DNA from: Bacteroidia bacterium
GTDB lineage: Bacteria > Bacteroidota > Bacteroidia > UKL13-3
Direction of reading: 5' to 3'
Assembly (NCBI GenBank): GCA_044353855.1
Contig: JBILBF010000001.1
Span: 54,462-118,461 of the forward strand
DNA: 64,000 nt
Numbering within the stretch: the stretch's first letter is position 1; each line of letters begins with the position of its first letter. This document shows positions 3,393-53,911 of this stretch, piece after piece. Both the position numbers and the translations under genes were made by a program. The notes under the pieces were generated by a model, which did not search any database, was not told where the DNA came from, and saw only the letters and a program-made list of their open reading frames with translations.

Positions 3393-3453
3393 TCGAACTC
3401 TCGAATTTCAAAATTCTCCATTTCGAATTTCGAGGTTCATTATTCGAATTTCA
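3393..3453. promoter_or_regulatory. Array of TCGAATTTC(A/G) motifs in the 78-bp mreB-mreC spacer
   Basis: Units at 3393-3400 (degenerate), 3401-3410, 3423-3433 and 3444-3453. Spacing between unit starts is 22 and 21 bp. The array ends 7 nt before the mreC ATG. Confidence 0.45.
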
Positions 3454-3459
3454 TTCAAG

Positions 3460-4290
3460 ATGCGCAACCTCATATTCTTTATTTATAAATATTATGTGTT
3501 CTTCCTCTTTCTTATATTGGAAGTTGCTGCCTTTGTGCTTATTTATCGATTTAATAATTACCAAAAAGCAAGCTTTGTAAATTACACAACCGGAATTACA
3601 AGTTCTTACTATACAGCTGTTAGCAATACACAAGAATATTTTAATTTACGTAGCGTGAACGATAGTTTACAAGTTGAAAATGCCCGATTGCATTCTCAAC
3701 TCATTACTTCTTATTATAAGAATAGTTTTAATCCTTCTCAAGTAAATGATAGTATTTACAAGCAACAGTATGAATATGTTCCTGCGCAAGTAGTTAGTAA
3801 TTCAGTTACTAAACGTAACAACTATATTACCTTAAACAGAGGTAGGTTGCATGGCATTGAACCAGAAATGGGTGTCATCAGTGAAAATGGAATTGTTGGC
3901 ATTGTGATGAATGTTTCCGACCATTATGCAACAGTCCTTTCCTTGCTTAATAATAATTGTAAGATAAGTGCTAAACTCGAAAAAAATGGCGCATTTGGTT
4001 CATTGGTGTGGGATGGAGCTGACCCTAAGTTTGCTGCACTCAAAGATGTAAACAAACATGTACCTTTAACCACAAACGATAACATCATTACAAGCAACTT
4101 CTCTACTATTTTTCCTGAAGGAATTCCGATTGGAAAAATATATGCTCATAGTTTAGATGCAGGGGATAATTTCCACACCATCAAAATTGAATTGAATACC
4201 GATTTTTCAACCGTATCAACGGTGTATGTGATTCGAAATTTAATGAAACAGGAACAACAAACCATTGAATCAACCATTGTAAACAAGTGA
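3460..4290 (+). CDS. mreC: Rod shape-determining protein MreC
   Basis: Position after mreB; N-terminal TM helix; coiled-coil region (NARLHSQL) and a beta-rich C-terminal domain typical of MreC. The stop overlaps the mreD start (ATGA). Confidence 0.8.
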   Translation: MRNLIFFIYKYYVFFLFLILEVAAFVLIYRFNNYQKASFVNYTTGITSSYYTAVSNTQEYFNLRSVNDSLQVENARLHSQLITSYYKNSFNPSQVNDSIYKQQYEYVPAQVVSNSVTKRNNYITLNRGRLHGIEPEMGVISENGIVGIVMNVSDHYATVLSLLNNNCKISAKLEKNGAFGSLVWDGADPKFAALKDVNKHVPLTTNDNIITSNFSTIFPEGIPIGKIYAHSLDAGDNFHTIKIELNTDFSTVSTVYVIRNLMKQEQQTIESTIVNK

Positions 4291-4808
4291 TTTTAGACTT
4301 TTTCACATACCTATTAAAATTTATTGGCATTGTATTGCTACAGTTGCTGGTTATTAATAATATTGAACTGAGTGGGTATATCAATCCATATGTATACGTC
4401 TCGTTTTTGTTACTTTTACCCATTCGTACCAAAGAATGGAAAGTAGTTATCATTGCTTTTTTAACAGGTGCTGTTATTGATGCTTTTTCAAGTACACCTG
4501 GCTTGCATATTGCTGCTTGTACGTTTATGGGTTTTATGCGCTTTCACTATATACGCACAACCACTAATAAAGAAGATATGGAAGGGAATGTTATACCATC
4601 ACTTTCCCAAAAAGGAATTGTATGGTTTACGGTATATGGTTTTGTGATGATTTTTATGCACCATACCTTATTATTCTTTTTAGAAATTTATGGCTTTCAT
4701 GAATTTTTGGCAACACTCTCTCGTGTGTTTTTGAGTACTTTGGTAACCCTGTTGCTTGTTATTGTAGGGCAATTATTATTTTTCAGAACACCCAAAACCA
4801 ATGGATAG
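4287..4808 (+). CDS. mreD: Rod shape-determining protein MreD (polytopic membrane protein)
   Basis: Small hydrophobic protein encoded between mreC and the PBP2 gene. 4-nt overlap with mreC and 8-nt overlap with mrdA. Confidence 0.7.
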   Translation: MILDFFTYLLKFIGIVLLQLLVINNIELSGYINPYVYVSFLLLLPIRTKEWKVVIIAFLTGAVIDAFSSTPGLHIAACTFMGFMRFHYIRTTTNKEDMEGNVIPSLSQKGIVWFTVYGFVMIFMHHTLLFFLEIYGFHEFLATLSRVFLSTLVTLLLVIVGQLLFFRTPKTNG

Positions 4809-6651
4809 TATAGGCAAACGCAATGTGCTCATCGCCATTTTTGTTGCATTGGCAATGGTTTATTTAATCAGACTCGCTTTTTTGCAATTGTTTGATGATT
4901 CTTATTTGCGTTCGGCACAGGAAAACGTTTTACAAGAACAAACCATATTCCCTGCTCGTGGATTAATATATGATCGCAATGGTGAACTCTTGGTTTACAA
5001 TGATGCTATTTATGATTTAATGGTTATTCCTGATCAGGTAAAAGATTTGGATACTATGGAATTTTGTAAGGTTCTTGGAATTACACAAGAAGGGTTTATC
5101 CAACGTTTCGAAAAAATGAAACGAAGCAAAGGATATGCTCGATACAGAGAACAGGTTTTTGAAAAACAATTGAGCATCCAAACGTACGCTGCATTTCAAG
5201 AAAAAATGTTCGACTTTTTAGGCTTCACAACCATCGTTCGTACTGATCGAAAATATAAATTTAGTGACGCTGCACATGTAATGGGATATATTGGTGAAGT
5301 AACGGATAGAGATATCGAGAAAAGTGGAGAATATTACCGAATGGGAGATTTTATGGGTATCAGTGGAGTTGAAAAGTCATATGAAGAAGTGTTGCGTGGA
5401 CGCAAAGGGGTGAGTTATGTGTTGGTTGATTCCAAAAATAGAACCCAAGGACGATACAAAGATGGTGAATTTGATACCGCTGCTATTGCTGGTCAAAATA
5501 TTGAACTCAGTATTGACCACCAATTGCAAGCATTGGGTGAGCAGTTGCTCAACAATAAAATTGGAAGTGCAGTAGCCATTGATCCAAGCACGGGAGAAAT
5601 TTTAGCATTGGTTGCAAGCCCTACTTACGACCCCAATTTATTTGTTGGTCGCGAACGTGGAAACAACTATATGAAATTACTCCGCGACCCATCTAAACCT
5701 TTATTCAACAGACCCCTTTCTGCACCGTATCCTCCCGGTTCTATTTTTAAAGTATTGATGGCATTAACGGGCCAACAAGAAGGTGTATTAAACCCAAGTA
5801 CTGCTTATGGTTGCCATCATGGATATATGTTTGTGGGTTGTCACCCACATAGTTCACCTCTACAATTAAGAGGTGCCATTGCAGTTTCCTGTAATGCCTA
5901 TTTCTGCCAAGTATACCGAAGTGTAGTCAATAATCCCAGGTATCCCAAAGCTGAAATGGCGTATAAAAATTTTCACAAACACATGGCTAGTTTTGGGTTA
6001 GGAAAAAAACTGGGTGTAGATTTGTATGGCGAAGGTGGAGGATTATTGCCAACCTCCGAATATTATGATCGAATTTATGGTCGCTTTCGCTGGCAAGCAA
6101 CCACCACCATTTCATTAGGAATTGGCCAAGGAGAATTGGGAATTACGCCCTTACAAATGGCAAACGCAACTGCAGCTGTTGCCAATAGAGGATATTATAT
6201 TACACCACATGTGGTAAAAACAATTGATGGAAAGAAAAACCCCAACCCCGAATACAATACCAAACATTGGAGTACAGTAGATACTGCTTATTTCCCCATT
6301 GTGATAGACGGTATGCAGGATGTTGTAGAAGCTGGTACTGCGCGTATTGCAAAACTTCCGGGAATTGAAGTATGCGGTAAAACAGGCACTGCGCAAAACC
6401 CACATGGAAAAGATCACTCTATCTTTTTTGCTTTTGCCCCCAAAACCAATCCCAAAATTGCTATTGCTGTCGTAATTGAAAATGCTGGCTTTGGTGCAAC
6501 TTGGGCGGCCCCTATAGCAAGTTTAATGATGGAACAATACCTTACCGGAAAACACGATACCCGCAAAGCATTATTAGAGCGTATGCTCAAAGGAAACCTT
6601 ATTCATAAAAATGATTCAATCGCAGCAACAACCCAAACCATCAAACGTTGA
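4801..6651 (+). CDS. mrdA: Penicillin-binding protein 2 (peptidoglycan D,D-transpeptidase)
   Basis: N-terminal TM anchor; dimerisation domain; transpeptidase domain with motifs SxxK (GSIFK), SCN and KTGTA. Operon context with rodA. Confidence 0.85.
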   Translation: MDSIGKRNVLIAIFVALAMVYLIRLAFLQLFDDSYLRSAQENVLQEQTIFPARGLIYDRNGELLVYNDAIYDLMVIPDQVKDLDTMEFCKVLGITQEGFIQRFEKMKRSKGYARYREQVFEKQLSIQTYAAFQEKMFDFLGFTTIVRTDRKYKFSDAAHVMGYIGEVTDRDIEKSGEYYRMGDFMGISGVEKSYEEVLRGRKGVSYVLVDSKNRTQGRYKDGEFDTAAIAGQNIELSIDHQLQALGEQLLNNKIGSAVAIDPSTGEILALVASPTYDPNLFVGRERGNNYMKLLRDPSKPLFNRPLSAPYPPGSIFKVLMALTGQQEGVLNPSTAYGCHHGYMFVGCHPHSSPLQLRGAIAVSCNAYFCQVYRSVVNNPRYPKAEMAYKNFHKHMASFGLGKKLGVDLYGEGGGLLPTSEYYDRIYGRFRWQATTTISLGIGQGELGITPLQMANATAAVANRGYYITPHVVKTIDGKKNPNPEYNTKHWSTVDTAYFPIVIDGMQDVVEAGTARIAKLPGIEVCGKTGTAQNPHGKDHSIFFAFAPKTNPKIAIAVVIENAGFGATWAAPIASLMMEQYLTGKHDTRKALLERMLKGNLIHKNDSIAATTQTIKR

Positions 6652-8149: not shown

Positions 8150-11100
8150 ATGAAAAAACAAGTACAAACCTTTCGTAATCTAATAACCAAGATATTGGGT
8201 GTTGGGTTATTGAGTGTGGGTCTGAGCGCATCAGTCGCCCATGCTCAAACTGTTCTTATCAATCCTACAGGAGATGGTGGATTTGATAACGGATCAACCT
8301 TTGCTGCCAATGGTTGGAGTGTTTCAAACTCAGTTAATAACCCATGGTTCGTTGGTACACCGGGAGGTGGAGCACCAATGACAGGGAATAAAGCTTACAT
8401 TTCAAACGATGGAGGTATAACGAATGCATATACTCCCGCAAGTAATGCCACAAACTATTTCTGGAGAGACATAACTATTCCGTCAACAGACTCCATTATT
8501 CATTTACAATTCAACTGGGCTCAACAAGGTGAAGCATCATATGATATATGGCAAGTGTTTACGGCTTCTACATCTATAACACCAGTTGGAGTTGCAACGC
8601 ACCCAGGCCTTGGTTTAAATAATGTACCAGCAGGAATTGCGGGTGCAACTTTTGTAGCAAATGGGTCAGTATTAACAGGGGTCCAAACTGCTTCAATCTT
8701 ATTACCTAAAACCTTAGCAGGAACAACTTTTCGATTGATATTTTCTTGGAAAAACGAAACAGGGGGAACACAACCACCTGCTTCTATTGACAATATTTCA
8801 CTTATTTCTAGACCTGCCCCATTTAATATCGTATCTACCGCAAGTGGAAATTGGTCCAATCCATCAACATGGTCTCCTTCTGTTATTCCATTATCTATAG
8901 ATACGGTAACAGTTGCAGCAACTCATACAGTGTCGTTAGATCTTACAGGACAATCGTCAGCTTCACTTAATATTGATGGAACGCTAGACTATGCAACAAC
9001 TTCATCTTCATTTTCGGTTTTAAATAATTTAACTGTTAACTCTAGTGGTATATTTAATGTATTTAATGGAAGTGTTGGAAAAACATTAAACGTTGCAAAA
9101 AATATTACCAATGATGGTACAATGGACTTTACGCAAACAGGTAGTGTTCTATCTTTAAATGGAACAACACCTCAAACTATTGGAGGAACGGGATCACTCA
9201 CTGCATCAACCATTGCTTCCCTAACATTTAACAATACATCAACTACCCGTACCATCAACTTCAACTGGTCAAATGTAATAGTGCCAACTACCCTCACCTT
9301 CACAAGTGGTTTGGTTAATCTTGGATTAGGCAACAGCATTACCTTAGGTACATCAGGAACATCATTAGGAACCTTAACGTTTACTGCTGGTAATGGATTT
9401 ACCAGCGGTAAATTTAGCCGTTGGGTTGGAGCAGCAGGAGCAGGAAGTACCATAGCGGCAAGTACCATTCCAAGTTTTGGAGTAGGTTCGTTTCCTTTTA
9501 TGAATGGAATCGGGAATGCTTGCCATTTTCACAAAGCAACCTCAGCGTTAACAACTGCAGGTATATTCAGTGTTGAATTTATTGGTGGGTTAAATACTAC
9601 TGCAACAAGTGTTCCTCCAACCGAGAGTTCACTTACCTTCGACCAAAAAACAAACGCATCATGGGCAGTGTCAACAAGTGGCGGCTATGCTTCGGCAGTA
9701 GCCCACACTTTTGCCATACAAGGCCAAGGAACCTATGTAGCATTTTCGAGCAACGCACGTTTGTTGATTAACGAAACTTTGTTTGGTACACACCAAGCTG
9801 GAACAAACCTACCAATGGTTCAAAGAACCGGAGTAGCTGCTGCCGATATTGTTGGAACATACACTATTGGACTTATTGGATCTGAAGTGGCTAACCAAAG
9901 TGTTGCTTCGGGTGCTTGGGACAATGCCGCTACCTGGAGCCTTGGAGTACCTATTTGTGGGCAAAATATTCTAATCAATACAGCTGATAGTATATGGATT
10001 GATGGCAGTATGGTAAGTGCAAATGCTGGTCAAATGTTGTTAAATGGTAAGTTAACAATATCAGGTAGTTCACTAACCATTGGGTGCAGCGGAAACAATA
10101 ATCTATTTTCAGCTTCAGGACGATTAACAGTTTCAGGAGGCCAGTTTATTATGAATGGAAATATGAACTTTGCTTCTGGTTCAATATTTACACAAACTGG
10201 TGGTACCATCACAATTGATGGTAACAGTGGAACAGCCCTTACTTCTGTATTAACAGGTACACCAATTATGAATATAGCAACAAACTTAGTGACTCTTACA
10301 GGAGGTACACTAGTGTTTGTTGATGGTCACATTGGAACAGCAACGGCTGATCGTGTATTAACCTACACTTCAGCAGCTACTCCTTATCCATTGATCTCAA
10401 CTGGCCACACTGTTCAGTTTGGAGATGGTATTTCAACACAAGCCAACTCAACCAAAGGATTTGAATCCAGTTTAGCAACCCGCTTCTATTTTGGAAACGT
10501 TGTTGTGAATACACTTGCTTCCAGCAATGCTTTTGTTGCATCAAGTTCGGCAACCGTAATTGTTAACGGTAACCTTACCATTACTGCCGGAGAGTTCCGT
10601 GGTGGAACTACCAACCTCATTGTAGGTGGTAATATCACTAATAATGGAACCTTAACCAATACAGGTGCATTGGTATTTGGCCAGGTAACACAAACCAATA
10701 TGGCTACTCCTACCATTACCTCACAAACAGTAGGTCAAACAGTAAGTGGAACAGGTGTATTCAGAAATTTAACAACATCTCCAACTGCCAACTATGCTTC
10801 GGTTACCATTAACAATACCTCAGCCGCTGGAGTAACTTTTTCTTCTAGTCAATCACTCCTAAGTGGAACCAATACCGGAACCGTTTCGAGTACATTAACC
10901 TTTACTAACGGTATGGTTAATACAGGTTCTAACACTTTTATATTAGGTATTAGTACTGCCTCATTGGGAACATTAACCCTAACAAATGGTGGATTTGGAT
11001 CGGGAAGTGCATTTAGCCGCTGGTGGGCAACTGCCATTGCAGGACAAACTATTACAGCTGGAGCCATTCCAACTGCAGGCGTTGGAACCTATCCATTTGT

Positions 11101-14100
11101 GGCTTTGCAATCATCTGCACCTGTAGCCTTCTTTCCTCGCCATGCTTATATTAGGCAAGCTGCAGCTTCTTCTGCTGGTGGCAGAATTACTCTAAGACAT
11201 AATGATGTAGCTGGTATTTCAGTTGCCTCAATTGTAGATGGAGCCTATACAGTTGAAACCCGCACCAATTCAAGTTGGGATGTTACAACTTCTGGTATAA
11301 CAGGAACACCAACTTATACCATAGCATTAAGTGCTAATGGCACATATGCAGCCATAAATGGCAATAGCCGTATTACAAGCGGAAGTGCACCTTTATCGGG
11401 CACACACCAAGCCGGAACTCGTTTACCTCATGCTCAAAGAGCCTCAGTTACTTTAGCTAATTTAACCAATACTTGGTATATGGGTGCAGCCAATGCAGAT
11501 ATAGCATTTAATACAATAGCCTCTGGTAATTGGGAAGATGGTAGTACTTGGAATAAAGGTATTGCTCCTACTTGTACCGATTCGGTTGTGATTTTTGACG
11601 GACACCAAGTTTCTATCAATGCCACAGCTGCAACTGCACGTGCAATTGGCATTAACCTTAACGGCAGACTTGTTGTTTCGGGTAATACTTTAACAGTTGG
11701 TTGTACTATGAACAATGCATCCATATTTATCCGCGGAAACTTTACGGTTTCGGGTGGAACGGTAAATGTTAATGGTTCAATTGCAAATGATTTTTCAGGC
11801 CGTTTCCAACAATCAGGTGGATCTATTGTAATAGATGGAAATGATAACGGAGTTGCTGCAACTAGTGCCACTTCACATATTTTGGATGCATATGCAACAA
11901 CGGATAGTAGTTTTGTATTATCAGGCGGAACAATTACAATTGTAGACCCTGCAGTAGCAGCTGCAGCCGTTGCATTTAAAGTATTCCCGAGTTTGCCTGT
12001 TAACTTTAGCACATCACATACCGTAATTTTCGGGGATGGTGTTTCAACACAACCAGGAGGAACGAATGCCTTTAATATAAATTTGTTTAATACGGGGTTA
12101 GGTTTAGCATCATTTGGTAATGTAATTGTAAATGCACCTTCTGGAGCCAATCGTTTTGTAGCTACAACCAATAACTTAGGTATTATAGGTAATTTGACGG
12201 TAACACAAGGTAACTACCGCATGACATCTGCCCATACAGTAAAAGGAAATATCGTAAATAACGATACTTTAATAAATACAAATACATTAACACTTGCAGA
12301 TCCTACAGGTGCCATAACATCTACCAATACAACCGCACAATCTATATCTGGTACAGGTAAGTTTTTAAACGCTGTAACTGGAGCAACTGCAGGAACAGCA
12401 AACTTAGTAGTGAGAAACAGTAGTATTGGAGGAGTAACTATTTCTACTCCATTTTCTGTATCTGGTACATTAACACTTACAAGAGGTATAGTAAACACTA
12501 CTGCTACAGATACTTTCCGTTTGGGAACAATCTCAGCAGCAGCAACCTTGGCAGGTGGAAGCGATACCGCTTATATCAATGGTCCATTCTCGCGTACGTT
12601 TGCTGCATCACGTTCAGCTACAGGAACCTATACCACTGCAGCTACATTGTATCCAGTTGGTAAATCGGGCCGTTACTTACCACTGTTTATTGACCCAACA
12701 ACCAATGCTGGTGGTCGCACAGTTGTTTCGGCAGAAGCTTTCGGCAGTAACGCTGGAACATTAGGCACGGGAGTAACATCTATGTCGGATATTCGCTGGC
12801 AATCAACTTATACTGATGCAGCCAATTTTGTAAGTGCTAACATGCGCCTTACAGATACTGCTGCTGCATTTACTTCAACCACTAAAATTGTTTCATCTGC
12901 AACAGCCGGTGGCTCATACACTGGTGCTCCTGTAACCATTACTTATGCTGCAGGACCTCCAAAAACCATTACTACAAGCACCCAAATACTTGCAGCCGAT
13001 TACATAGGTAATTTTGCTTATGGAGAATTGGTAACTTGTGCTGCTCCAACTAATCAGGCAACTGTATTTACAGTTTCTAACCTTGGCTCATCTGCATTTA
13101 ACGGTTCGTATACCTCAGCAATTGGTGGATCAACACATTATTTAGTAGTTCGTTATGCTACAGGTGGAACCGAAGTAGCTCCTTCAAACTTTACCAACTA
13201 TGCAGTTAATGCAGTATTAGGAACTGGAACCGTTGTGGCAAACTCTACAGGAACAACTTTTAACCAAACAGGCTTAACCGCTGCTACTGGTTACGATTAT
13301 TATGTGTATGCCTATAACAATAGCGGTTGCTTTGGCCCGGTATACAATACCACAAGTCCATTATTTGCAACAGTTACTACTTGTGCAGCAGGTATTCCAA
13401 CTCCTGTAGGTGCAGCAGCTGTAAATATATCCAACAACTCTTTTGTGGCTCGTTGGAATCCAATTGCAAACCCTGGAGCAACTTATGTGTTGGATGTTTC
13501 TACAAATTCAGGTTTCTCTAGTTTTGTTTCTGGTTACAATTCCTTATCAACATATACTGATACGTTTGCAGTTGTGAGTGGTTTGACAGGCAATACCGGA
13601 TATTTCTACAGAGTAAGAGCAATTGACGGATTGTGTGCAAGTACCTTGTCAACCAACCAAACTGTAACCACTTTCTGTAATCCTATTGTAACCTTACCAT
13701 GGACCGAAGGATTTGAATCACTTGCGACAGGAACAAACTTGTTCCCAAGTTGCTGGAATTTTTCTAATACTTTAAGTTCATGGTTTATAGCTTCGCCATT
13801 AGCATTTACAGGAACCAAATCACTACGCAGATCATGGAGTACCAATGGTTGGGCATTTACGCCACCAGTTTCAATGACTGCAGGCACTCCTTATTTGTTT
13901 AGCTATTACGTTCGTACTGCTGATAACACTACTCCTGCATATGACGTAACCATTGCAGTTGGAACTGGTCAAAATGCTAGTGCTATGACCACTACATTAT
14001 TAACACAAACAAATTATCAATCTACAACTTGGACTCAGTTTACTGTTTCGTTTACCCCAGGTACTACAGCCGATTACTCTTTTGGAATCAATGTAATAGC

Positions 14101-17100
14101 ACCTAACGATCCTAACGGAATTAATTTTGATGATTTAAAAATTGAACAAGCTGTAGCTCCAACTGTTAGTACTGGTTCTAAATCAGCAGTAAGTGTGAGT
14201 TCAGCTTTTTTAAGTGCGAACATTGTAAGTAACGGAGGTGTATCTAATACAGCTTCTGGCATTGTAATAGGAACAAATCCAAATCCTGTAATTGGAGGAC
14301 CTGGAGTTACAGATTCGTCATCATTTGTTCCAGTACAAAGTGGTGCCTATTCATTTAATATTACTGGTTTAAGCAACTCTACAACATACTACTATCGTGC
14401 TTATGCCATCAATTCAGTTGGTACTTCTTATGGAGTAGACAGTTCATTCACCACATTAGCTGCTCCAACCCCACCTTCTATTGTTCTCTCGCCAATTGCA
14501 AATGTTGGTCCATTTAGCGCTACGTTAAATGCCAATATTACTGGAGACGGTGGTAGTGTAGTTACAATAAGTGGAATTGTATATAGCACAACTCCAAACC
14601 CAACTATTGGTGGCCCGAGTGTAATAGATTCAACTTCTACCGCTACCACAGGTACGTATTCAATTACACCAGTTGGACTAAATACATTAACTAAATACTA
14701 TTATCGTGCATATGCCATAAATGGTATTGGAACAGCCTATTCATCACAAGATAGTTTCACTACTTTATTTGGAATTAATACAATTCCTTACGCTCAAAAT
14801 TTTGAGGGTGGTGCTGCCAATTGGACAACACAAACAATTGGAACTAATAACGATTGGGTATTAGGAACTCCTACTAAAACTTTCTTGAACGGAGCTCGAA
14901 GTGGCGTAAACGCATGGAATACTGGCTTATCAGCTCAGTATACCAATAACCATGATGCCGCAGTTGTTTCCCCTGTTTTTGATTTTTCTGGTTATGTGAC
15001 CCAACCTTATGTTCGTTTCTTCCATAAGTTTATTACGGAGCCAGGATATGATGCTTTGGTGGTTGAAATTTCAATTAATGGTGGAACCTGGACCAAACTA
15101 GATAACACTCTTGGTACAGGAGGTAACTTTAATAGCACCAATAGTAAAGCCTGGTATAACAGCACAAGTACAAGTGGCTCAATTATTCCGCCTAAATTTT
15201 CAAGTACCACTGGTGGTGTAGGAAGTACTGGAATATATTCAAGTCAAAGCAACGGTTGGATTCAAAGTACCACTACACTTACAGGAGCAATAGGTCAATC
15301 AAATGTACGTTTCAGATTTAGATTTGGTTCTGACGGATCGGATTCACAAGATGGTTGGTCGCTGGATGATATAGAAGTATTGTTTCAAACAGCTCCTCAA
15401 TTAGTTACATCAACAAAATCATCCATAACCACTTCAAGTGCTACAGTTGGTGGTAACATAACAAGCGATGGATTATCAAGCGTTACTGCTAGTGGCGTTG
15501 TAATTGGAACCAGTGCTAGCCCTACAATTGGAGACCCTGGAGTAATTGATTCAGTTACTACTCCCAATATTGGAAGTGGTGTATTCAGCTTTAATGTAAC
15601 TGGTTTATCTTTATCTACCACCTATTTCTATAGAGCATATGCTACCAACTCTATTGGAACTTCATATGGAGCAGACAGCAGCTTTACAACTAATGCTGCC
15701 AATGTTCTACCAACCGTTTTAACTACAGCTGTTACCAATCTTACCGTTAGCAGTGCAACAGTTAATGCCAATATCACCAGCAATGGTGGAGATGCAGTTA
15801 CAGCAAGTGGTATCGTATATGGTACATCACCTAACCCAACCATTGGTGATCCAGGTGTTGTTGATTCAACCACTACTCCATTGGTTTCTTTAGGAACATT
15901 CAGTATTAACCCTGCTGGATTAACCCATACTACCAAGTATTACTATAGAGCTTATGCTACCAATACTGTGGGAACTGCATACAGTGTGCAAGATAGCTTT
16001 ACCACTGCCATTTTGATTAATGCATTCCCGTACACACAAAACTTTGATGCAGGCGCAGCCGGTTGGACTGCTGCTGCCAATGGAGGAGACAATCCTTGGG
16101 AAATAGGTACACCAGCTAAAACGTTTTTGAACGCTGCTTATTCAGGTTCTAATGCTTGGGTTACCAAGTTGGTAGGAGACTACTCTAGTCTTGCAAATTC
16201 CGATGCTGTTGTAGTTTCTCCTCAAATAGATCTTACAACTGCAACCAATCCAGTAATTCGTTTCAAACATAAATTTGATACAGATGCTGATCCTGATTAT
16301 GACGGTGGTGTTCTAGAAATCTCAATTAACGGAGGTTTATGGACTCGATTAAACAATGCATCAGGAACCGGTGCAAACTTTAACACAACAACCAGTTATG
16401 CTTGGTACAACAACGCAGTAGCAAGTGGAACTTTAGGTGCAAATAAATTCAATGGTATTAGCAACGTAGGTTATTCATCGGTTGATGGTAACGGTTGGCT
16501 AGAAAGTGCAACGCCTTTAACTGGTGGAGCAGGGCAAGCAAATGTAAAAGTTCGTTTCCGTTTTTGGGCCGATCAATATGGTGTGGATGAAGGATGGGCA
16601 ATTGATGATATCGAGATTGTAGATGTTGTTGTTCCTTCAACTTTAGCTTCAACAGTAAACCTTACTGCAATTGCTAATACTACAACAACCGTTAACTGGA
16701 CCAATGGTAACGGACAAGGTCGTATGGTAGTTGCACGCTTAACAAGTACACCAGCAGTAGCTCCAACAAATAATACAATATATACACAAAACTCAGCATT
16801 TGGTAGTGGAGAAACAACAGGCGCAGGAAACTTTATTGTATTCCGAAGCAATACCTCATCTGTAGTTGTAAATGGTTTGGCATTACTAACTGATTACACA
16901 TATGATGTGTATGAATACAACGGTAAGTTTATGCATATTGCTTTTGCTGCTGCTGCATCAAACAATGGAAGCACCTTACCTGTAACCTTAACTACATTTT
17001 CCGGAACAACTAAAGATAAAGATGCACAACTTAACTGGGCAACTGCAACAGAAAGTAACAATGCAGGATTTGATTTAGAACGTTCATTAGATGGCCGTAC

Positions 17101-17536
17101 ATTTAGCAAAGTAACATTTGTTAAAGGAGCTGGAAACAGCAACCGTGCTTTAACTTACAACTACAAGGATGTAAATGCTTTTGCAAAAGCAACTGTATTA
17201 TACTACCGCTTAAAACAAGTTGATTTTGATGGTAAATTTACTTACTCACAAGTAGTGAAAGTAACAGCTAACACCATCAATACACAATCGTTTACAGCGT
17301 ATCCTAATCCGTTTACATCAGAATTTAATGTAGCCTTTACAGCTACAACTACTGGTATTGCAACAATAGAAATGGTTGATTTGCAAGGACGTAAAGTTTT
17401 GAGCTCAACCGCAGATATTGGACTAGGAAACAATGTAATACCGGTGAAAAATGAAGCTACCATTTATCCAGGAGTTTATTTTGTACGTTTAACCCTCAAC
17501 GGTGAAACACAAGTAACCAAATTGGTGAAAAACTAA
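8150..17536 (+). CDS. Giant (3128-aa) secreted repetitive surface protein / adhesin. Beta-helix-like repeat region, FN3-like and MAM-like domains, and a T9SS C-terminal sorting domain
   Basis: Signal peptide MKKQVQTFRNLITKILGVGLLSVGLSASVAHA followed by Q. Strong T/S/G/N/A bias. Three copies of a roughly 530-aa N-terminal module. Six FN3-like repeats containing (Y/K)YYYRAYA(T/I)N and three or four MAM-like modules ending in DD(I/L)(E/K)(I/V). The last roughly 80 aa (YPNPFTSEFNVAFTA...GVYFVRLTLNGETQVTKLVKN) match the T9SS type-A C-terminal-domain pattern. Confidence 0.85.
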   Translation: MKKQVQTFRNLITKILGVGLLSVGLSASVAHAQTVLINPTGDGGFDNGSTFAANGWSVSNSVNNPWFVGTPGGGAPMTGNKAYISNDGGITNAYTPASNATNYFWRDITIPSTDSIIHLQFNWAQQGEASYDIWQVFTASTSITPVGVATHPGLGLNNVPAGIAGATFVANGSVLTGVQTASILLPKTLAGTTFRLIFSWKNETGGTQPPASIDNISLISRPAPFNIVSTASGNWSNPSTWSPSVIPLSIDTVTVAATHTVSLDLTGQSSASLNIDGTLDYATTSSSFSVLNNLTVNSSGIFNVFNGSVGKTLNVAKNITNDGTMDFTQTGSVLSLNGTTPQTIGGTGSLTASTIASLTFNNTSTTRTINFNWSNVIVPTTLTFTSGLVNLGLGNSITLGTSGTSLGTLTFTAGNGFTSGKFSRWVGAAGAGSTIAASTIPSFGVGSFPFMNGIGNACHFHKATSALTTAGIFSVEFIGGLNTTATSVPPTESSLTFDQKTNASWAVSTSGGYASAVAHTFAIQGQGTYVAFSSNARLLINETLFGTHQAGTNLPMVQRTGVAAADIVGTYTIGLIGSEVANQSVASGAWDNAATWSLGVPICGQNILINTADSIWIDGSMVSANAGQMLLNGKLTISGSSLTIGCSGNNNLFSASGRLTVSGGQFIMNGNMNFASGSIFTQTGGTITIDGNSGTALTSVLTGTPIMNIATNLVTLTGGTLVFVDGHIGTATADRVLTYTSAATPYPLISTGHTVQFGDGISTQANSTKGFESSLATRFYFGNVVVNTLASSNAFVASSSATVIVNGNLTITAGEFRGGTTNLIVGGNITNNGTLTNTGALVFGQVTQTNMATPTITSQTVGQTVSGTGVFRNLTTSPTANYASVTINNTSAAGVTFSSSQSLLSGTNTGTVSSTLTFTNGMVNTGSNTFILGISTASLGTLTLTNGGFGSGSAFSRWWATAIAGQTITAGAIPTAGVGTYPFVALQSSAPVAFFPRHAYIRQAAASSAGGRITLRHNDVAGISVASIVDGAYTVETRTNSSWDVTTSGITGTPTYTIALSANGTYAAINGNSRITSGSAPLSGTHQAGTRLPHAQRASVTLANLTNTWYMGAANADIAFNTIASGNWEDGSTWNKGIAPTCTDSVVIFDGHQVSINATAATARAIGINLNGRLVVSGNTLTVGCTMNNASIFIRGNFTVSGGTVNVNGSIANDFSGRFQQSGGSIVIDGNDNGVAATSATSHILDAYATTDSSFVLSGGTITIVDPAVAAAAVAFKVFPSLPVNFSTSHTVIFGDGVSTQPGGTNAFNINLFNTGLGLASFGNVIVNAPSGANRFVATTNNLGIIGNLTVTQGNYRMTSAHTVKGNIVNNDTLINTNTLTLADPTGAITSTNTTAQSISGTGKFLNAVTGATAGTANLVVRNSSIGGVTISTPFSVSGTLTLTRGIVNTTATDTFRLGTISAAATLAGGSDTAYINGPFSRTFAASRSATGTYTTAATLYPVGKSGRYLPLFIDPTTNAGGRTVVSAEAFGSNAGTLGTGVTSMSDIRWQSTYTDAANFVSANMRLTDTAAAFTSTTKIVSSATAGGSYTGAPVTITYAAGPPKTITTSTQILAADYIGNFAYGELVTCAAPTNQATVFTVSNLGSSAFNGSYTSAIGGSTHYLVVRYATGGTEVAPSNFTNYAVNAVLGTGTVVANSTGTTFNQTGLTAATGYDYYVYAYNNSGCFGPVYNTTSPLFATVTTCAAGIPTPVGAAAVNISNNSFVARWNPIANPGATYVLDVSTNSGFSSFVSGYNSLSTYTDTFAVVSGLTGNTGYFYRVRAIDGLCASTLSTNQTVTTFCNPIVTLPWTEGFESLATGTNLFPSCWNFSNTLSSWFIASPLAFTGTKSLRRSWSTNGWAFTPPVSMTAGTPYLFSYYVRTADNTTPAYDVTIAVGTGQNASAMTTTLLTQTNYQSTTWTQFTVSFTPGTTADYSFGINVIAPNDPNGINFDDLKIEQAVAPTVSTGSKSAVSVSSAFLSANIVSNGGVSNTASGIVIGTNPNPVIGGPGVTDSSSFVPVQSGAYSFNITGLSNSTTYYYRAYAINSVGTSYGVDSSFTTLAAPTPPSIVLSPIANVGPFSATLNANITGDGGSVVTISGIVYSTTPNPTIGGPSVIDSTSTATTGTYSITPVGLNTLTKYYYRAYAINGIGTAYSSQDSFTTLFGINTIPYAQNFEGGAANWTTQTIGTNNDWVLGTPTKTFLNGARSGVNAWNTGLSAQYTNNHDAAVVSPVFDFSGYVTQPYVRFFHKFITEPGYDALVVEISINGGTWTKLDNTLGTGGNFNSTNSKAWYNSTSTSGSIIPPKFSSTTGGVGSTGIYSSQSNGWIQSTTTLTGAIGQSNVRFRFRFGSDGSDSQDGWSLDDIEVLFQTAPQLVTSTKSSITTSSATVGGNITSDGLSSVTASGVVIGTSASPTIGDPGVIDSVTTPNIGSGVFSFNVTGLSLSTTYFYRAYATNSIGTSYGADSSFTTNAANVLPTVLTTAVTNLTVSSATVNANITSNGGDAVTASGIVYGTSPNPTIGDPGVVDSTTTPLVSLGTFSINPAGLTHTTKYYYRAYATNTVGTAYSVQDSFTTAILINAFPYTQNFDAGAAGWTAAANGGDNPWEIGTPAKTFLNAAYSGSNAWVTKLVGDYSSLANSDAVVVSPQIDLTTATNPVIRFKHKFDTDADPDYDGGVLEISINGGLWTRLNNASGTGANFNTTTSYAWYNNAVASGTLGANKFNGISNVGYSSVDGNGWLESATPLTGGAGQANVKVRFRFWADQYGVDEGWAIDDIEIVDVVVPSTLASTVNLTAIANTTTTVNWTNGNGQGRMVVARLTSTPAVAPTNNTIYTQNSAFGSGETTGAGNFIVFRSNTSSVVVNGLALLTDYTYDVYEYNGKFMHIAFAAAASNNGSTLPVTLTTFSGTTKDKDAQLNWATATESNNAGFDLERSLDGRTFSKVTFVKGAGNSNRALTYNYKDVNAFAKATVLYYRLKQVDFDGKFTYSQVVKVTANTINTQSFTAYPNPFTSEFNVAFTATTTGIATIEMVDLQGRKVLSSTADIGLGNNVIPVKNEATIYPGVYFVRLTLNGETQVTKLVKN
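14150..15389 (+). repeat. Internal supermodule 1 of the giant gene: FN3-like, FN3-like, then MAM-like
   Basis: At protein level it parallels 15390-16625: two roughly 100-aa repeats ending ...YYYRAYAIN..GT.Y, then an (F/P)Y.QNF..GAA.W...GWS/AIDDIE module. Confidence 0.6.
15390..16625 (+). repeat. Internal supermodule 2 of the giant gene: a tandem duplicate of 14150-15389
   Basis: Same domain order and conserved motifs (TTYFYRAYATNSIGTSYG, TKYYYRAYATNTVGTAYS, GWAIDDIEIV). Nucleotide identity has diverged, so this is an old in-frame tandem duplication of about 1.24 kb. Confidence 0.6.
17290..17533 (+). other. T9SS type-A C-terminal sorting domain (CTD) of the giant protein
   Basis: Terminal roughly 80 aa with the conserved pattern of Por-secretion-tail domains (YPNP..., GxY.V.L, terminal K-rich strand). 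Confidence 0.7.
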
Positions 17537-17688: not shown

Positions 17689-19614
17689 TTGATAACATTT
17701 AACGAACTAGGTTTAGACACGTCCGTTCTAAGCGCAATCTCTGAGTTAGGGTTTACCAACCCAACTCCAGTTCAGGAACAGTCCATTCCTGTATTTTTAG
17801 AGACCGAAAGAGACATTTTGGCCCTTGCACAAACCGGAACCGGTAAAACAGCAGCATTCGGCTTGCCACTATTGCAAAAGATTGACTTCAACAGCAAAAC
17901 AACGCAAGCACTTATTATTTGTCCTACACGTGAGCTTTGCCTCCAAATTTCCAAAGACCTTGGAAACTATAGCAAATTCATCAAAGGTGTAAATATTGCA
18001 GCCGTTTATGGAGGTTCTAGTATTACCCAACAAATTGATCAACTCAGAAGAGGTGCACAAATTATTGTAGCTACTCCCGGAAGATTAATGGATTTGATGG
18101 ATCGCAAAGCAGTAAAAATCCAAAGCATACAATTTGTTGTATTGGATGAAGCAGATGAAATGCTGAACATGGGTTTTAGAGACGATATTGAACAAATATT
18201 ATCTGTAACACCATCCGAAAAACGCGTTGCATTGTTTAGTGCTACCATGCCTAAGCAAGTAAAACAAATTGCCGATGTGTATTTAAAAGACCCAGTAGAA
18301 ATTACGGTAGGTCGTAAAAACACAGCCAACGAAAACATTACCCACGAATACGCAGTAGTGCATGCAAAAGATAAAGTTGCTGCCCTCAAACGTGTATTGG
18401 ATTACACCAGCGACCATTTTTATGGTATTGTATTTTGCCAAACCAAAAACGAAACACAAGATATTAGCGATAAGTTAATACGTGAAGGATACAATGCCGA
18501 TTGTTTACACGGTGACCTTAGCCAAGGCCAACGGGAAAAAGTAATGAGCCGTTTCCGTCACCATGCTATCAAAATATTATTAGCAACGGATGTAGCCGCT
18601 CGTGGTATTGATGTAACCGGTATTACTCACGTAATCCATTACCATTTACCTGATGATAACGAAAACTATACACACCGCAGCGGCCGTACGGCACGTGCTG
18701 GTAAAACAGGTATTTCGTTTACCTTATTAAACATGCGCGAGCAATACCGCTTGCGTGAAATAGAACGTTTAATTGGTACCCAGTTTAAGAAAATTTTAAT
18801 CCCTTCGGCTACCGAAGTGCGTGATAAAAAATTAATTGCCTTTACCGATACCATCAAAAATTGTGAAATTGAAGAATCCATTTTTGATAAAACAGTTTTG
18901 GACGGATTAGAGCCATTAATGGAACTCAGCAAAGAAGAGTTAGTTAAAAAAATGCTATCGCTTGAATTGCGCAGATTCTCTGATGAATACCTAAACGCTC
19001 CTGACTTAAACGTACAAGAGCGTTCGGCTGCAGGAAGAGATAGCAGAGATTCAAGAAGTGGAGACCGTGAGCCAAGAGAACGTGCATATGGATCAAGCCA
19101 AGGCACGCGCTTATTTGTGAGCATAGGCCAAAAAGATGGTTTGGATATTGAAACATTAAAAAACTTTATCACTACAACTACAGGAATGACTCCAGCAGCC
19201 ATTCACCGAGTAGACGTTAAAGGAGTATATTCATTTGTAAATGTTGATGCCGAAAGTGTAGATACCGTAATGAAATCACTTCACGGAAGTGAGTTTAAAG
19301 GTCGTCCAGTTCGTGTTGAAATCTCTGGAGATACACAAGATTCAGGTCGTACACGTAGTTCATCATCAAGAGGTGGATATGGTGGCGGTGGAGACCGTGG
19401 TGGAAGCCGCGGAGGTGATAGAGGCGGAAGCGGAAGATCATATGGAGGCGGTGGAGACCGAGGTGGAGATAGAAGACGCAGCGAAGGTGGAAGCTCATCA
19501 TATGGTGGTGGCGAAAGAAGACGCAGTGAAGGGGGAAGTTCATCATACGGTGGAGGCGAACGCAGAAGAAGTGAAGGAAGCGGTGGCGGAGAGCGCAGAA
19601 GAAGATCATACTAA
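17689..19614 (+). CDS. deaD: DEAD-box ATP-dependent RNA helicase (DeaD/CsdA-like) with an Arg/Gly/Ser-rich repetitive C-terminal tail
   Basis: Q-motif region; Walker A AQTGTGKT; DEAD (VLDEADEM); SAT; HRSGRTARAG. DbpA-like RNA-binding domain. Tail GGYGGGGDRGGSRGGDRGG...(GGSSSYGGGERRRSEG)x3. Confidence 0.9.
   Translation: MITFNELGLDTSVLSAISELGFTNPTPVQEQSIPVFLETERDILALAQTGTGKTAAFGLPLLQKIDFNSKTTQALIICPTRELCLQISKDLGNYSKFIKGVNIAAVYGGSSITQQIDQLRRGAQIIVATPGRLMDLMDRKAVKIQSIQFVVLDEADEMLNMGFRDDIEQILSVTPSEKRVALFSATMPKQVKQIADVYLKDPVEITVGRKNTANENITHEYAVVHAKDKVAALKRVLDYTSDHFYGIVFCQTKNETQDISDKLIREGYNADCLHGDLSQGQREKVMSRFRHHAIKILLATDVAARGIDVTGITHVIHYHLPDDNENYTHRSGRTARAGKTGISFTLLNMREQYRLREIERLIGTQFKKILIPSATEVRDKKLIAFTDTIKNCEIEESIFDKTVLDGLEPLMELSKEELVKKMLSLELRRFSDEYLNAPDLNVQERSAAGRDSRDSRSGDREPRERAYGSSQGTRLFVSIGQKDGLDIETLKNFITTTTGMTPAAIHRVDVKGVYSFVNVDAESVDTVMKSLHGSEFKGRPVRVEISGDTQDSGRTRSSSSRGGYGGGGDRGGSRGGDRGGSGRSYGGGGDRGGDRRRSEGGSSSYGGGERRRSEGGSSSYGGGERRRSEGSGGGERRRRSY
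19366..19611 (+). repeat. Coding tandem repeat (period about 48 nt) that encodes the RGG/GGSSSYGGGERRRSEG tail of DeaD
   Basis: Near-identical 48-nt units are visible at 19470-19610. This is low-complexity Gly/Arg/Ser coding sequence. Confidence 0.7.
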
Positions 19615-34481: not shown

Positions 34482-35948
34482 ATGATTAACCACAACTTAA
34501 AAATATACAATACCCTAACGCGCGAAACAGAACGGTTTACGCCATTGCATACAGGGCATGTTGGTATGTATGTATGCGGGCCTACAGTATATAGCAATGC
34601 TCATTTGGGAAATGCCCGCACGTTTATGTCGTTTGATATCATTTTTCGATACCTCACACATTTGGGATATAAAGTTAGGTATGTGCGCAATATTACCGAT
34701 GCAGGGCATTTGGAAAGTGATGCAGATGAAGGTGAAGACAAGATTTCGAAAAAGGCAAAGTTAGAACAACTAGAGCCAATGGAAATTGTGCAACGTTACA
34801 CTATTGACTTTCATGATATGATGCAATCGTTTAATGCATTGCCTCCTAGCATTGAACCAACAGCAACTGGTCATATAATTGAGCAAATAGAAATGACCAA
34901 ACAAATTATAGCCAATGGTTATGGGTATGAAGCGGGTGGTTCTATTTATTTTGATGTAGAGAAATTTTCGAAAGAATATAATTACACCATACTAACCGGC
35001 CGCAAACTTGAAGACTTAATGAATGGCACGCGCGAATTAGGTGGGCAGGATGAAAAACGTGGACGGTTAGATTTTGCATTGTGGATTAAAGCAAAACCAG
35101 AACACTTGATGAAATGGACAAGCCCTTGGGGAGAAGGATTCCCTGGCTGGCATTTGGAATGCTCGGCCATGAGTAGTAAATATTTAGGCGAACAATTTGA
35201 CATACATGGTGGCGGAATGGACCTTGCTCCTACACACCATACCAACGAAATTGCTCAGAACATTGCATGCTCGCATAAAACGCCTGCTCGTTATTGGATA
35301 CACACGAATATGCTTACTGTTAATGGGCAAAAAATGAGTAAAAGTTTGGGCAATTCTTTTTTACCTCACGAATTGTTTACTGGCAATCATCCTTTATTGG
35401 ATAAAGGCTACAGCTCAATGACTGTTCGCTTTTTTGTTTTGCAAGCACATTACCGCAGCACACTCGATTTTGGTAATGAAGCATTGCAGGCTGCCGAAAA
35501 AGGTTTTGCACGATTGATGAATGCGATGAAACTGATGGATGGTTTAAAAACAACTACTGCATCTTCATCAAATATTCAGCAATTGTCAGATAAATTGTAT
35601 GCCGCACTAGATGATGATTTTAATACACCCATTGCCTTATCGCATTTGTTTGAAGGAGTTAGGATTATAAATAGTGTAAACGATGGTAAGGAAACTATTT
35701 CGCTTGATGATAAAATAGCACTCATTAAATTAATGAACAATTTTGTTTTTGATATACTTGGGTTAAAAGAAGAGAATGCTGTAAACACGGATAAAATTGA
35801 TGGTTTAATGAACATGATTTTGGAGGTACGCAATGAATCAAAAGCTAAAAAAGATTTTGCAACCAGCGATTTAATTCGTGATAAGTTAAAAGAAATTGGG
35901 TTTGAGATAAAGGACGGAAAGGAAGGAACTTCGTATACTCTTTCATAG
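34482..35948 (+). CDS. cysS: Cysteine--tRNA ligase
   Basis: HIGH motif (HLGNAR), KMSKS (KMSKSLGN) and zinc-binding Cys residues. Confidence 0.95.
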   Translation: MINHNLKIYNTLTRETERFTPLHTGHVGMYVCGPTVYSNAHLGNARTFMSFDIIFRYLTHLGYKVRYVRNITDAGHLESDADEGEDKISKKAKLEQLEPMEIVQRYTIDFHDMMQSFNALPPSIEPTATGHIIEQIEMTKQIIANGYGYEAGGSIYFDVEKFSKEYNYTILTGRKLEDLMNGTRELGGQDEKRGRLDFALWIKAKPEHLMKWTSPWGEGFPGWHLECSAMSSKYLGEQFDIHGGGMDLAPTHHTNEIAQNIACSHKTPARYWIHTNMLTVNGQKMSKSLGNSFLPHELFTGNHPLLDKGYSSMTVRFFVLQAHYRSTLDFGNEALQAAEKGFARLMNAMKLMDGLKTTTASSSNIQQLSDKLYAALDDDFNTPIALSHLFEGVRIINSVNDGKETISLDDKIALIKLMNNFVFDILGLKEENAVNTDKIDGLMNMILEVRNESKAKKDFATSDLIRDKLKEIGFEIKDGKEGTSYTLS

Positions 35949-36013
35949 AAAATACGGAGTTTGAAATGAGTAAAAATGCGTAATGTTTAATGCAATACGT
36001 TCATCTATTTAAT

Positions 36014-36084
36014 CTCGAATTTCGAAATAAATGTAAAACGAAAAAACAATCACTTTTCGAATTTCGTTATTCGGATTTCGAATT
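36014..36084. promoter_or_regulatory. Array of TCGAATTTCGA motifs upstream of the M28/QC gene
   Basis: Units at 36014-36027, 36056-36065 and 36070-36084. Spacing between unit starts is 42 and 21 bp. The array ends 12 nt before the ATG. Confidence 0.45.
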
Positions 36085-36096
36085 TATTTTACTGAT

Positions 36097-37071: not shown

Positions 37072-37141
37072 TTAGCTATTGAACATAATTTACATGCATC
37101 CTACAAGATTGCAGAATTTCTTTTTATAGCTACTTGTATGC

Positions 37142-39547: not shown

Positions 39548-39742
39548 AAGCGCTAAAGTTGATTGTTTCAAATATATTATTGGCAATGTAAAAACGGTTA
39601 TGCTGATTAAAAATTAAATTAAGAAAATATTATATCACCACACTTTTGTATAATTGTGGTACAAAACTACATTTGAAGAGTTATCAAAAAAAGTTTGGAA
39701 CAGTTTTTGAAATTCATCAATCAAATAACATTAAACAACAAT

Positions 39743-40192: not shown

Positions 40193-40215
40193 GTTATTAA
40201 TCGATAAAAATTCTT

Positions 40216-40258
40216 TAAAACCTGCACCACAAATAGTGATTGCAGGTTTTATTTTTGA
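40216..40258 (+). terminator. Rho-independent terminator after DUF1573 paralog 1
   Basis: AAACCTGCA ..14-nt loop.. TGCAGGTTT TATTTTTG. Confidence 0.7.
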
Positions 40259-40281
40259 ACCTCATATAAAAAACATACATC

Positions 40282-40704: not shown

Positions 40705-40715
40705 TTTTTACATTG

Positions 40716-40762
40716 CTACAAAACAAAAAGTCCTCTATATGAAGGACTTTTTTGTTTTGTAG
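40716..40762. terminator. Long-arm bidirectional terminator (18/19-bp inverted repeat TACAAAACAAAAAGTCCT / AGGACTTTTTTGTTTTGTA)
   Basis: Near-perfect palindrome after paralog 2, with A- and T-runs on both sides. Confidence 0.75.
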
Positions 40763-41978: not shown

Positions 41979-41988
41979 TGTTTATGCC

Positions 41989-52032: not shown

Positions 52033-52149
52033 CATTCAAATAAAGAAGTACATTATCTGATTGACTGTTCTTTTTTTAATATGCTAATTTGTAGTAACAC
52101 ATAATTTTCAATTTAAATAATCAGTAACCTGTTTTAATTTTAAACCCTA

Positions 52150-52179
52150 TCGAATTTCGATGTTAGAATTTCGATTTTC
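52150..52179. promoter_or_regulatory. TCGAATTTCGA and GAATTTCGATTTT motifs upstream of thiL
   Basis: Two units, at 52150-52160 and 52165-52179. The second ends 11 nt before the ATG. Confidence 0.4.
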
Positions 52180-52190
52180 CTTTATTAAAA

Positions 52191-53762: not shown

Positions 53763-53893
53763 GGGAATACAAAGTATATATTTTTGTAGTAACCCGTTGC
53801 GATGTTAACTAAAGATAAATAAATATAATCCGTGTAATCAGCGGCTAAAAAATAATTGAAAGACTTAAGTGCGTTTCATTTCGTATTTTTGAC

Positions 53894-53911
53894 ATTTCGC
53901 AATTCGATTTT
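53894..53911. promoter_or_regulatory. ATTTCGCAATTCGATTTT element (TCGAATTTCGA family) immediately upstream of def
   Basis: Ends 3 nt before the def ATG. Confidence 0.35.

Follow-up and report, generated by a model that had tools for sequence, protein, structure and literature searches.

The window analysed here is the whole of a 64,000-nucleotide stretch of contig JBILBF010000001.1 from an uncultured member of the Bacteroidota, and its subject is a set of short TTCG-containing repeats that lie directly upstream of several genes. Tandem Repeats Finder (TRF) detects exactly three period-7 arrays in these 64 kb (3401-3452, 36055-36085 and 52150-52179), with copy numbers of 4.3-7.3 and a repeat match of 62-70%. 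They occupy the mreB-mreC, cysS-M28 peptidase and DUF4293-thiL spacers (Pfam assignments), each directly 5' of a + strand gene, and a degenerate run of heptads precedes def. The best-supported reading is that the window holds three clear, partly decayed copies and one doubtful copy of a hairpin element, from a poorly understood family that is present in many bacterial phyla. The features are as follows.

3393..3456, + strand: mreB-mreC spacer element; degenerate heptads from 3393, clean register at 3422-3456 (TTCGAAT TTCGAGG TTCATTA TTCGAAT TTCATTC); ATG at 3460
36014..36034, + strand: left (5') arm of the cysS-M28 spacer element (CTCGAAT TTCGAAA TAAATGT); pairs with the right arm in folds
36056..36090, + strand: right (3', U-rich) arm of the cysS-M28 spacer element (TTCGAAT TTCGTTA TTCGGAT TTCGAAT TTATTTT); TRF period 7
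52149..52183, + strand: thiL-upstream array (ATCGAAT TTCGATG TTAGAAT TTCGATT TTCCTTT); hairpin at 52149-52175, then a U-rich tail; ATG at 52191
53874..53911, + strand: def-upstream degenerate heptads (TTTCATT TCGTATT TTTGACA TTTCGCA ATTCGAT TTTAAA); ATG at 53915

The motif TCGAATTTCR has six exact matches in the window, all on the + strand (starting at 3401, 3423, 3444, 36015, 36057 and 52150), where shuffled sequences predict 0.19, and there are 11 matches to TCGAATTTCGA with one mismatch compared with 0.84 expected. The recurrence noted in a preliminary description of this DNA is therefore confirmed, and it is far above chance. The reading of 21-, 22- and 42-nt spacings as helical phasing is not: they reflect either multiples of the 7-nt unit or the separation of two hairpin arms. 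TTCG cores follow one another at 7, 14 / 35, 7, 7, 7 / 14 nt, so the repeat unit is a heptad, TTCGNNN, and cores stand 7 or 14 nt apart. The arrays are head-to-tail units of 7 nt in at least two copies, intergenic, forward and tens of nucleotides 5' of a start codon, as are the members of the class of intergenic heptanucleotide tandem repeats. All are on the + strand before + strand ATGs, with 3-7 nt between the end of the array and the ATG (5 nt at def). The right arm at 36056..36090, which is the best family member in the window, ends 6 nt before the ATG at 36097. The M28 start is itself ambiguous, since other annotations use a second ATG at 36124 (giving a protein of 315 aa rather than 324 aa), from which the array would be 33 nt, not 6 nt, upstream.

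The motif had been assigned to five genes. It is clear before mreC, M28/QC and thiL, and only degenerate before def, where TTCG occurs at 53880, 53896 and 53903 and membership of the heptad family is weak. The site at 51550 has a single TTTCG that aligns with non-repeat sequence of the relative L212 (L numbers designate the loci used for comparison), and so is not an array. The consensus of the Bacteroidetes -7 promoter box is TAnnTTTG, and this box had been called not visible at these positions. A perfect match, TATTTTTG, nevertheless lies at 53884-53891, inside the degenerate def heptads. Among the array sites def is the only one with the box; TATTTTAC, 4 nt before the M28 ATG, is a weak match. 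The ruvX-def spacer holds TATTTTTG twice (53779-53786 and 53884-53891), with both copies fitting the -7 box and the proximal one standing 23 nt before the def ATG. Elsewhere, in the region 41945-41989, a canonical terminator ends 14 nt before the ATG at 41989 and is followed by TATGTTTA 4 nt before that ATG, a geometry equal to that of TATTTTAC before the ATG at 36097 (36082-36099). Both TATGTTTA and TATTTTAC may be -7-like boxes yielding leaderless mRNAs.

Window DNA identical over up to 7 kb, without any difference, is present in five further metagenomes, and two Logan assemblies have 0-3 differences. Since 5-7 independent metagenome assemblies give the same arrays without change, an origin in assembly error can be dismissed. 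No part of the window matches Rfam at the gathering score.

Hairpins and orthologous spacers

TTCGAA is its own reverse complement, so runs of these heptads pair with each other. The predicted RNA fold of the mreB-mreC spacer has an energy of -14.9 kcal/mol (z -2.0), with a hairpin involving bases 3395-3438, and that of the thiL leader -7.6 kcal/mol (z -2.1). For 36005-36099 the value is -16.1 kcal/mol (z -1.7), and here the array at 36056-36085 forms a stem with the unit at 36015, which makes the 42-nt spacing from 36015 to 36057 the distance between the two arms of one stem. Two relatives give stronger folds. In L125, TTCGGAT/TTCGTTC/TTTGAAT heptads make the mreB-mreC spacer a 31-bp palindrome that is nearly perfect (-38.3 kcal/mol, z -10.3). 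The cysS-M28 element of L221 begins with a CGAAA-type left arm directly behind the cysS stop codon, ends 14 nt short of the ATG and has a fold of -22.8 kcal/mol (z -3.2).

Between the window and the relatives used, 4-fold degenerate sites are 27-47% identical, and neutral sites are thus saturated. Against this background the orthologous spacers differ widely in length and in the repeats that they carry:

mreB-mreC spacer, window: 78 nt, TTCGAAT heptads
mreB-mreC spacer, L125 (MreC identity 86%): 84 nt, the near-perfect 31-bp TTCG-heptad palindrome
mreB-mreC spacer, L123 (MreC identity 90%): 213 nt, ATAATTA-type heptad arms
mreB-mreC spacer, L127 (MreC identity 77%): 38 nt, without repeats
mreB-mreC spacer, L129 (MreC identity 60%): 46 nt, without repeats
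thiL spacer, L212 (85%): CGAAA-type heptads after the stop codon, TTCGAAT-type heptads before the start codon
thiL spacer, L211 (ThiL identity 88%): GCCAANN heptads instead
thiL spacer, L213 (83%): 46 nt, no heptads
def spacer: TTTCGAA units in L211 and L212, none in L213

Overall, the motif is kept before the orthologues of M28 (L221), thiL (L212) and def (L211 and L212), and is replaced or absent in L123, L127, L129, L211 and L213. Quite different heptads (GCCAANN and TGCGGAG) are found in equivalent spacers of L211 at 9924-10000 and 11051-11250, again ending at start codons. Among ThiL relatives at 60-78% identity from metagenome contigs, synteny is lost and no arrays were found; the gene spacing is 157 nt in a relative with 98% ThiL identity and 147 nt in one with 90% M28 identity.

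The retained copies differ in what they say about constraint. The thiL and def spacers of the window are 72-78% identical to those of relatives (39 of 50 positions for def in L211), which is weak evidence of constraint, given that arrays of a repeat family align well whether they are orthologous or not. The M28 copy is another matter. Positions 36054-36105 are identical to L221 at 52 of 52 sites, comprising 43 non-coding nucleotides and ATGAAAAAA, whereas the M28 proteins are 79% identical, 4-fold sites 41% and other spacers of this pair 70-78%. This is strong evidence because the identity takes in the non-repeat linker, and it argues for purifying selection on one copy at least.

TTCG heptads in other phyla, in an rRNA gene and in coding DNA

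A scan of one genome per species with the pattern TCGAATTTC-N(3-33)-TCGAATTTC returned at least 120 loci, and the counts and descriptions from it given here are those among the matches listed. Multiples of 7 account for 71 of 125 unit-pair spacings, with 14 nt occurring 42 times, 13 nt once and 15 nt four times, which is not a 10.5-nt phasing. Heptad matches come from more than 10 phyla, among them Acidobacteriota, Planctomycetota, Verrucomicrobiota, Patescibacteria, Desulfobacterota, Bacteroidota, Chloroflexota and cyanobacterial relatives. A common arm reads GATTTGT TTCGAAT TTCGATA TTCGAAT TTCGGAT TT, and near-identical arms are present in Acidobacteriota, Planctomycetota, Patescibacteria and Desulfobacterota. 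The common arm quoted, a 37-mer, is identical in metagenome-assembled genomes of three phyla (Aminicenantes, Desulfobacterales and Saccharibacteria), with 18 of its 37 positions set by the search pattern itself. The window sequence at 36055-36086 is 94% identical over 32 nt to the arm of L112 and about 90% identical to the arms of L015, L046 and L077.

A complementary arm was found upstream in 35 of 63 arrays and downstream in two, so that, whichever strand is read, an A-rich (CGAAA-type) arm comes first and a U-rich arm second. It follows from this order that the arm nearer to a start codon always has TTTCG in the direction of the gene after it, and the same order accounts for the many arms that adjoin the stop codon of a convergent gene. 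Elsewhere in other phyla, arms adjoin starts without a visible Shine-Dalgarno sequence.

An nhmmer profile built only from arms outside the Bacteroidota recovers the window copies at 36055 (E=1.6e-5), 52149 (E=9e-4) and 3420-3452 (E=0.003), and also matches L212, L123, L125 and L211. In 145 kb of the window's clade it has 10 matches (E<0.1), and at the same threshold it has none in about 618 kb of DNA from Bacteroidota further away, which indicates that the family is sporadic among lineages, as are the TAACTGA repeats discussed below. Phages are not the vector, judging from a scan of 2.9 million viral contigs for TCGAATTTCGNNNTTCGAATTTCG, with only two matches.

Several arms of the family are located within the large-subunit (LSU) rRNA gene of the Saccharibacteria locus L045 (Rfam match 3425-6545). 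The Rfam LSU alignment reveals helix-tip insertions of 179, 211, about 56 and more than 90 nt, the last of which starts ...ggaaauccgaaaucagaauaucgaaauccuaaacaaauccgaaau. Those of 179, 211 and more than 90 nt contain family arms, and are helix-tip hairpin insertions in the manner of an intervening sequence (IVS), which holds for L045 only and not for the window copies. Some of the L045 insertions are TTCGNNN-heptad palindromes, and others are AGCGAGA-heptad palindromes between CACATCACAC...GTGTGATGTG hairpins. The 23S genes of candidate phyla radiation (CPR) bacteria have been reported to carry short insertions without open reading frames (ORFs) at known IVS sites, presumed to be IVS excised by RNase III, with no mention of a heptad structure (PMC11270868).

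Heptads of this type also occur within protein-coding DNA. The coding region of hutH (aromatic ammonia-lyase) holds TTCGAAT heptads, antisense to the gene, in L001 (3655-3685, upstream of the window) and L123 (3273-3316), where they replace a variable 10-residue stretch with the length unchanged; they are absent from the L125 orthologue. In L221 (4091-4123), the DNA coding for the linker that follows the M28 lipoprotein's signal peptide contains a TTCGAAT-type 14-nt tandem repeat, AAATTCGAAATCTC, in 2.4 copies, and the window's linker (36182-36212) has a different 14-nt repeat, AACCGCAAACAAC-like, 14 not being a multiple of 3. The presence of heptads in coding DNA without a change in length points to an in-place repeat-generating process besides, or instead of, insertion.

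Heptamers are widespread in the wider group. In 763 kb of Bacteroidota DNA, of which 12% is intergenic by ORF calls, the most frequent intergenic tandem-repeat period found by TRF is 7:

period 6: 3 intergenic, 31 coding
period 7: 47 intergenic, 27 coding
period 9: 6 intergenic, 59 coding
period 12: 11 intergenic, 33 coding
period 14: 19 intergenic, 5 coding

The heptad unit varies by genome (TTTCACT, GATTAAC, CAATTAT, AGGCAGG and others), and many of the arrays are at most 12 nt from a start codon or directly follow a stop codon. In the cultured isolate Mucilaginibacter glaciei ZB1P21, a related palindrome occupies the whole spacer before obg. A further case is a conserved non-coding sequence of about 90 nt in L145 (6777-6865) and L195 (2682-2771), of the form TTTAGACTTGTATAAATAT...AAAGATAGTAAAACACG.TGACTTGTATA...CTTTCGCGATAAGC, which is flanked on both sides by heptad arrays with different units in each organism. 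The conserved spacer of L145 has no match in Rfam at E <= 0.01, and the sequence may be a small RNA not described so far, or else a promoter region that is conserved.

Two other features of the window are recorded here. Its host carries type IX secretion cargo, including a 3128-residue protein (8150-17536) with a C-terminal Por_Secre_tail (type IX secretion) and faint fn3/Reelin-type repeats, whose relatives are divided among several genes in L123. A 45-nt tandem repeat of 2.2-2.4 copies with 85-87% matches lies at 19462-19577, within the ORF at 17689-19614.

Readings of the arrays

The 7-nt unit, the hairpin architecture, the turnover between relatives and the cross-phylum membership, including 23S helix-tip insertions, are direct observations. 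On balance, the arrays are probably short, partly decayed copies of a TTCGNNN-heptad hairpin family that resembles repetitive extragenic palindromic (REP) elements and IVS, and that acts, if at all, most likely as RNA stem-loops. A typical arm is TTCGAAT-TTCGNNN-TTCGRAT-TTCGAAT-TT. In a full element, a variable loop would separate a 5' arm that is A-rich (CGAAA-type) from a 3' arm that is U-rich (TTTCG-type), and the whole would occupy a non-coding spacer nearly from the stop codon to the next start codon. An element filling the spacer in this way leaves its U-rich arm in sense orientation just before unrelated genes, and the proximity to starts is largely a consequence of the shortness of stop-to-start spacers. 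Heptamer slippage together with template switching from one arm to the other, and/or some form of mobilisation, may create and remodel such elements, which would be tolerated only in non-coding DNA or protein linkers. Where they have any effect it would be at the RNA level, as intercistronic or 5'-leader stem-loops beside start codons without a Shine-Dalgarno sequence, serving as RNase III-type processing or stability sites or as weak attenuators. They are unlikely to be operators for a DNA-binding regulator. The fallback suggestion of the preliminary description, an RNA repeat in 5' leaders or a small repeat family that prefers start-proximal sites, comes close to this, except that the family crosses phyla and is not genome-specific.

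Several points weigh against this reading. The hairpins of the window are weak (z about -2), and the fold of the def site (-5.7 kcal/mol, z +0.39) is not significant. No target-site duplications were found, among relatives too distant to give pairs of filled and empty sites, nor was a mobilising enzyme, for which no dedicated search was made. The loops differ between copies. Heptad copy number does not vary among five metagenome assemblies, which are however clonal, with zero single-nucleotide polymorphisms. Slippage alone cannot explain identical 37-mers in different phyla. The 43 upstream nucleotides identical with L221 are not expected of a purely selfish or neutral element, and a gene-specific promoter or leader function would also explain the identity before M28. 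Miniature inverted-repeat transposable elements were considered and rejected: the arms are inverted repeats, but loops are not conserved between copies, which sets the elements apart from the classical type, and target-site duplications are not recognisable. TTCGAAT may also bear some likeness to the tRNA T-loop, the RNase E consensus and the H-NS motif.

A bolder form of the hairpin-family reading can be put forward tentatively. The TTCGNNN-heptad hairpin would be one discrete family that spreads horizontally, or is held constant by a universal factor such as RNase III, and that has settled between genes and at the tips of rRNA helices in many phyla, most of them uncultured. It would be the equivalent of REP there and would give the short ORF-less rRNA insertions of CPR bacteria their identity, and some copies would have been co-opted as conserved start-adjacent leaders.

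A role as terminator or attenuator hairpins that work in both directions is unlikely. Each element would then terminate transcription weakly and so set the expression of adjacent cistrons relative to one another, keeping mreB above mreC, for instance. The order of an A-rich 5' arm and a U-rich 3' arm is almost invariable on either strand (35 compared with 2 among the matches listed), elements directly follow stop codons, and the hairpins at 36015-36081 and 52149-52175 are followed by the U-rich tails UUUAUUUUAC and UUUUCCUUUAUU. However, the stems are AU-rich, and apart from these two tails the arrays lack the GC-rich stem of at least 5 bp followed by a T-run that defines an intrinsic terminator. 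A scan of 35000-54600 for sigma-70 promoters and consensus terminators listed canonical GC-stem terminators and none of the arrays. There is also no space for a promoter before the next ATG, and termination by the copies that lie within a 23S rRNA gene would be deleterious.

Plain simple-sequence repeats (SSRs), that is, neutral heptanucleotide microsatellites from in-place polymerase slippage, without identity as an element and without function, are a rather improbable explanation. Heptamers are the commonest intergenic tandem-repeat period here, as is known for many bacteria (Mrazek 2007, as cited in PMC4679880 and PMC4692102), units differ between related genomes, and TTCGAAT-type heptads appear even within coding DNA without a change in length. 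Yet the repeats are imperfect, with specific heptads in a recurring order, the arm order is strongly asymmetric, and a 37-mer is identical across phyla. One copy is fully conserved while neutral sites are saturated, and no length polymorphism is seen among the (clonal) assemblies. For the same reason, the comparison with phase-variable SSRs of the hmw type, which are perfect and variable in copy number, is a weak test; the window repeats are imperfect and vary in copy number in none of the five assemblies.

Quite improbable, too, is a heptad-reading RNA-binding protein, either a cold-shock-domain protein or ribosomal protein S1, with one protein or domain per 7 nt of a U-rich leader, tuning initiation without Shine-Dalgarno sequences. 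MacGregor proposed this hypothesis for the TAACTGA repeats (PMC4679880), where it is also reviewed that CspB binds heptamers and that S1 has four RNA-binding OB domains, to be compared with the 4-5 heptads of a typical arm. The arrays end 3-7 nt before the ATG in sense orientation, arms in other phyla adjoin starts where no Shine-Dalgarno sequence is visible, and the right arm with its linker is perfectly conserved in L221. Against this, the same arms also stand at stop codons of convergent genes and inside rRNA, and the presence of other heptads at the same position in relatives makes sequence-specific recognition doubtful.

Most improbable is the operator array first proposed, in which a global or growth-rate-linked DNA-binding regulator occupies TCGAATTTCGA units on one helix face with mreC, QC, thiL and def as its regulon: the motif departs from chance and precedes genes in sense orientation, TTCGAA is a dyad and some copies are conserved in relatives, but the period is 7 or 14 nt rather than about 10.5 nt (42 nt being the distance between hairpin arms), orthologous spacers hold other heptads or none, the downstream genes are functionally unrelated, and the same sequence occurs in more than 10 phyla, after the stops of convergent genes and inside a 23S rRNA gene, which a lineage-specific regulon does not predict.

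Related repeat systems and significance

REP, BIME and REPIN elements of Proteobacteria are short extragenic palindromes that are dense between genes and often stand just after stops, and their RNA stem-loops affect stability, attenuation and translation. REPs are GC-rich with a conserved GTAG and are mobilised by REP-associated tyrosine transposases (RAYTs), and REPINs are REP doublets. The elements described here have palindromic arms between genes, at 3-4 copies per 64 kb in the window, but they are AU-rich and have a heptad substructure. No GTAG was seen at arm ends, and no transposase gene was noticed among the called ORFs of the window, for which no dedicated search was made.

Among the closest described repeats are the TAACTGA repeats of marine Beggiatoaceae, Cyanobacteria and some Bacteroidetes (MacGregor 2015, PMC4679880). 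Like the arrays here, they are tandem intergenic heptanucleotides in forward orientation a few nucleotides from the starts of unrelated genes (1-43 nt upstream in Bacteroidetes, within a general excess of heptamer SSRs; PMC4679880). They share with them a sporadic phylogeny, close relatives with shorter, repeat-free spacers, and other heptamers in the same spacers. The unit TTCGNNN/TTCGAAT differs from TAACTGA in being self-complementary, so that the two are different members of the same class. In contrast to TAACTGA, the copies here are imperfect, have a recurring arm of 4-5 heptads, are usually paired as inverted-repeat hairpins and also occur within an rRNA gene.

Other heptamer arrays between genes are the short tandemly repeated repetitive (STRR) sequences of cyanobacteria and the GGGAATC / GGGGA(T/C)T repeats of Xanthomonas and Nostoc (PMC4692102); some stand as inverted pairs, and they vary in length and sequence between close relatives. 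Units of the STRR/GGGAATC type are G-rich and quadruplex-prone, whereas those here are AT-rich and self-complementary. For 23S IVS, the likeness lies in L045, where family arms form hairpin insertions of 179 to more than 200 nt at LSU helix tips, and IVS are described as excised by RNase III and thought to spread horizontally (PMC11270868). The window copies differ in lying in mRNA spacers rather than rRNA, and heptads are unreported for IVS in that study.

The best experimental model for how such an element might act is hmw1A of Haemophilus influenzae, where an (ATCTTTC)n heptamer repeat in the 5' untranslated region, upstream of the start codon as here, forms a long hairpin arm that is an RNase III substrate setting expression (PMC12721329). 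The hmw repeat is perfect, has at least 11 units and is phase-variable (PMC12721329), while the arrays here have 4-5 imperfect units and no length variation was seen among clonal assemblies.

Our limited literature search found no paper on the exact motif, and no description of a self-complementary TTCG-heptad palindrome family, of near-identity across phyla or of rRNA insertions of this kind. In many bacterial genomes no other long simple repeats are as over-represented as heptamers, which often stand right before start codons; intergenic heptamer repeats beside start codons are treated as known but unexplained in Mrazek 2007, as cited in PMC4679880 and PMC4692102. What is added here is a family whose heptads are self-complementary and build a defined arm. 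Its hairpins consistently have an A-rich 5' and a U-rich 3' side, and near-identical copies occur in distant phyla, including insertions in rRNA. For annotation, arrays of this kind are not to be taken for regulon motifs. The family joins three literatures, those on heptamer SSRs, REP-like palindromes and rRNA intervening sequences, and the hypothesis that it acts in RNA processing can be tested in a cultured carrier, Mucilaginibacter glaciei.

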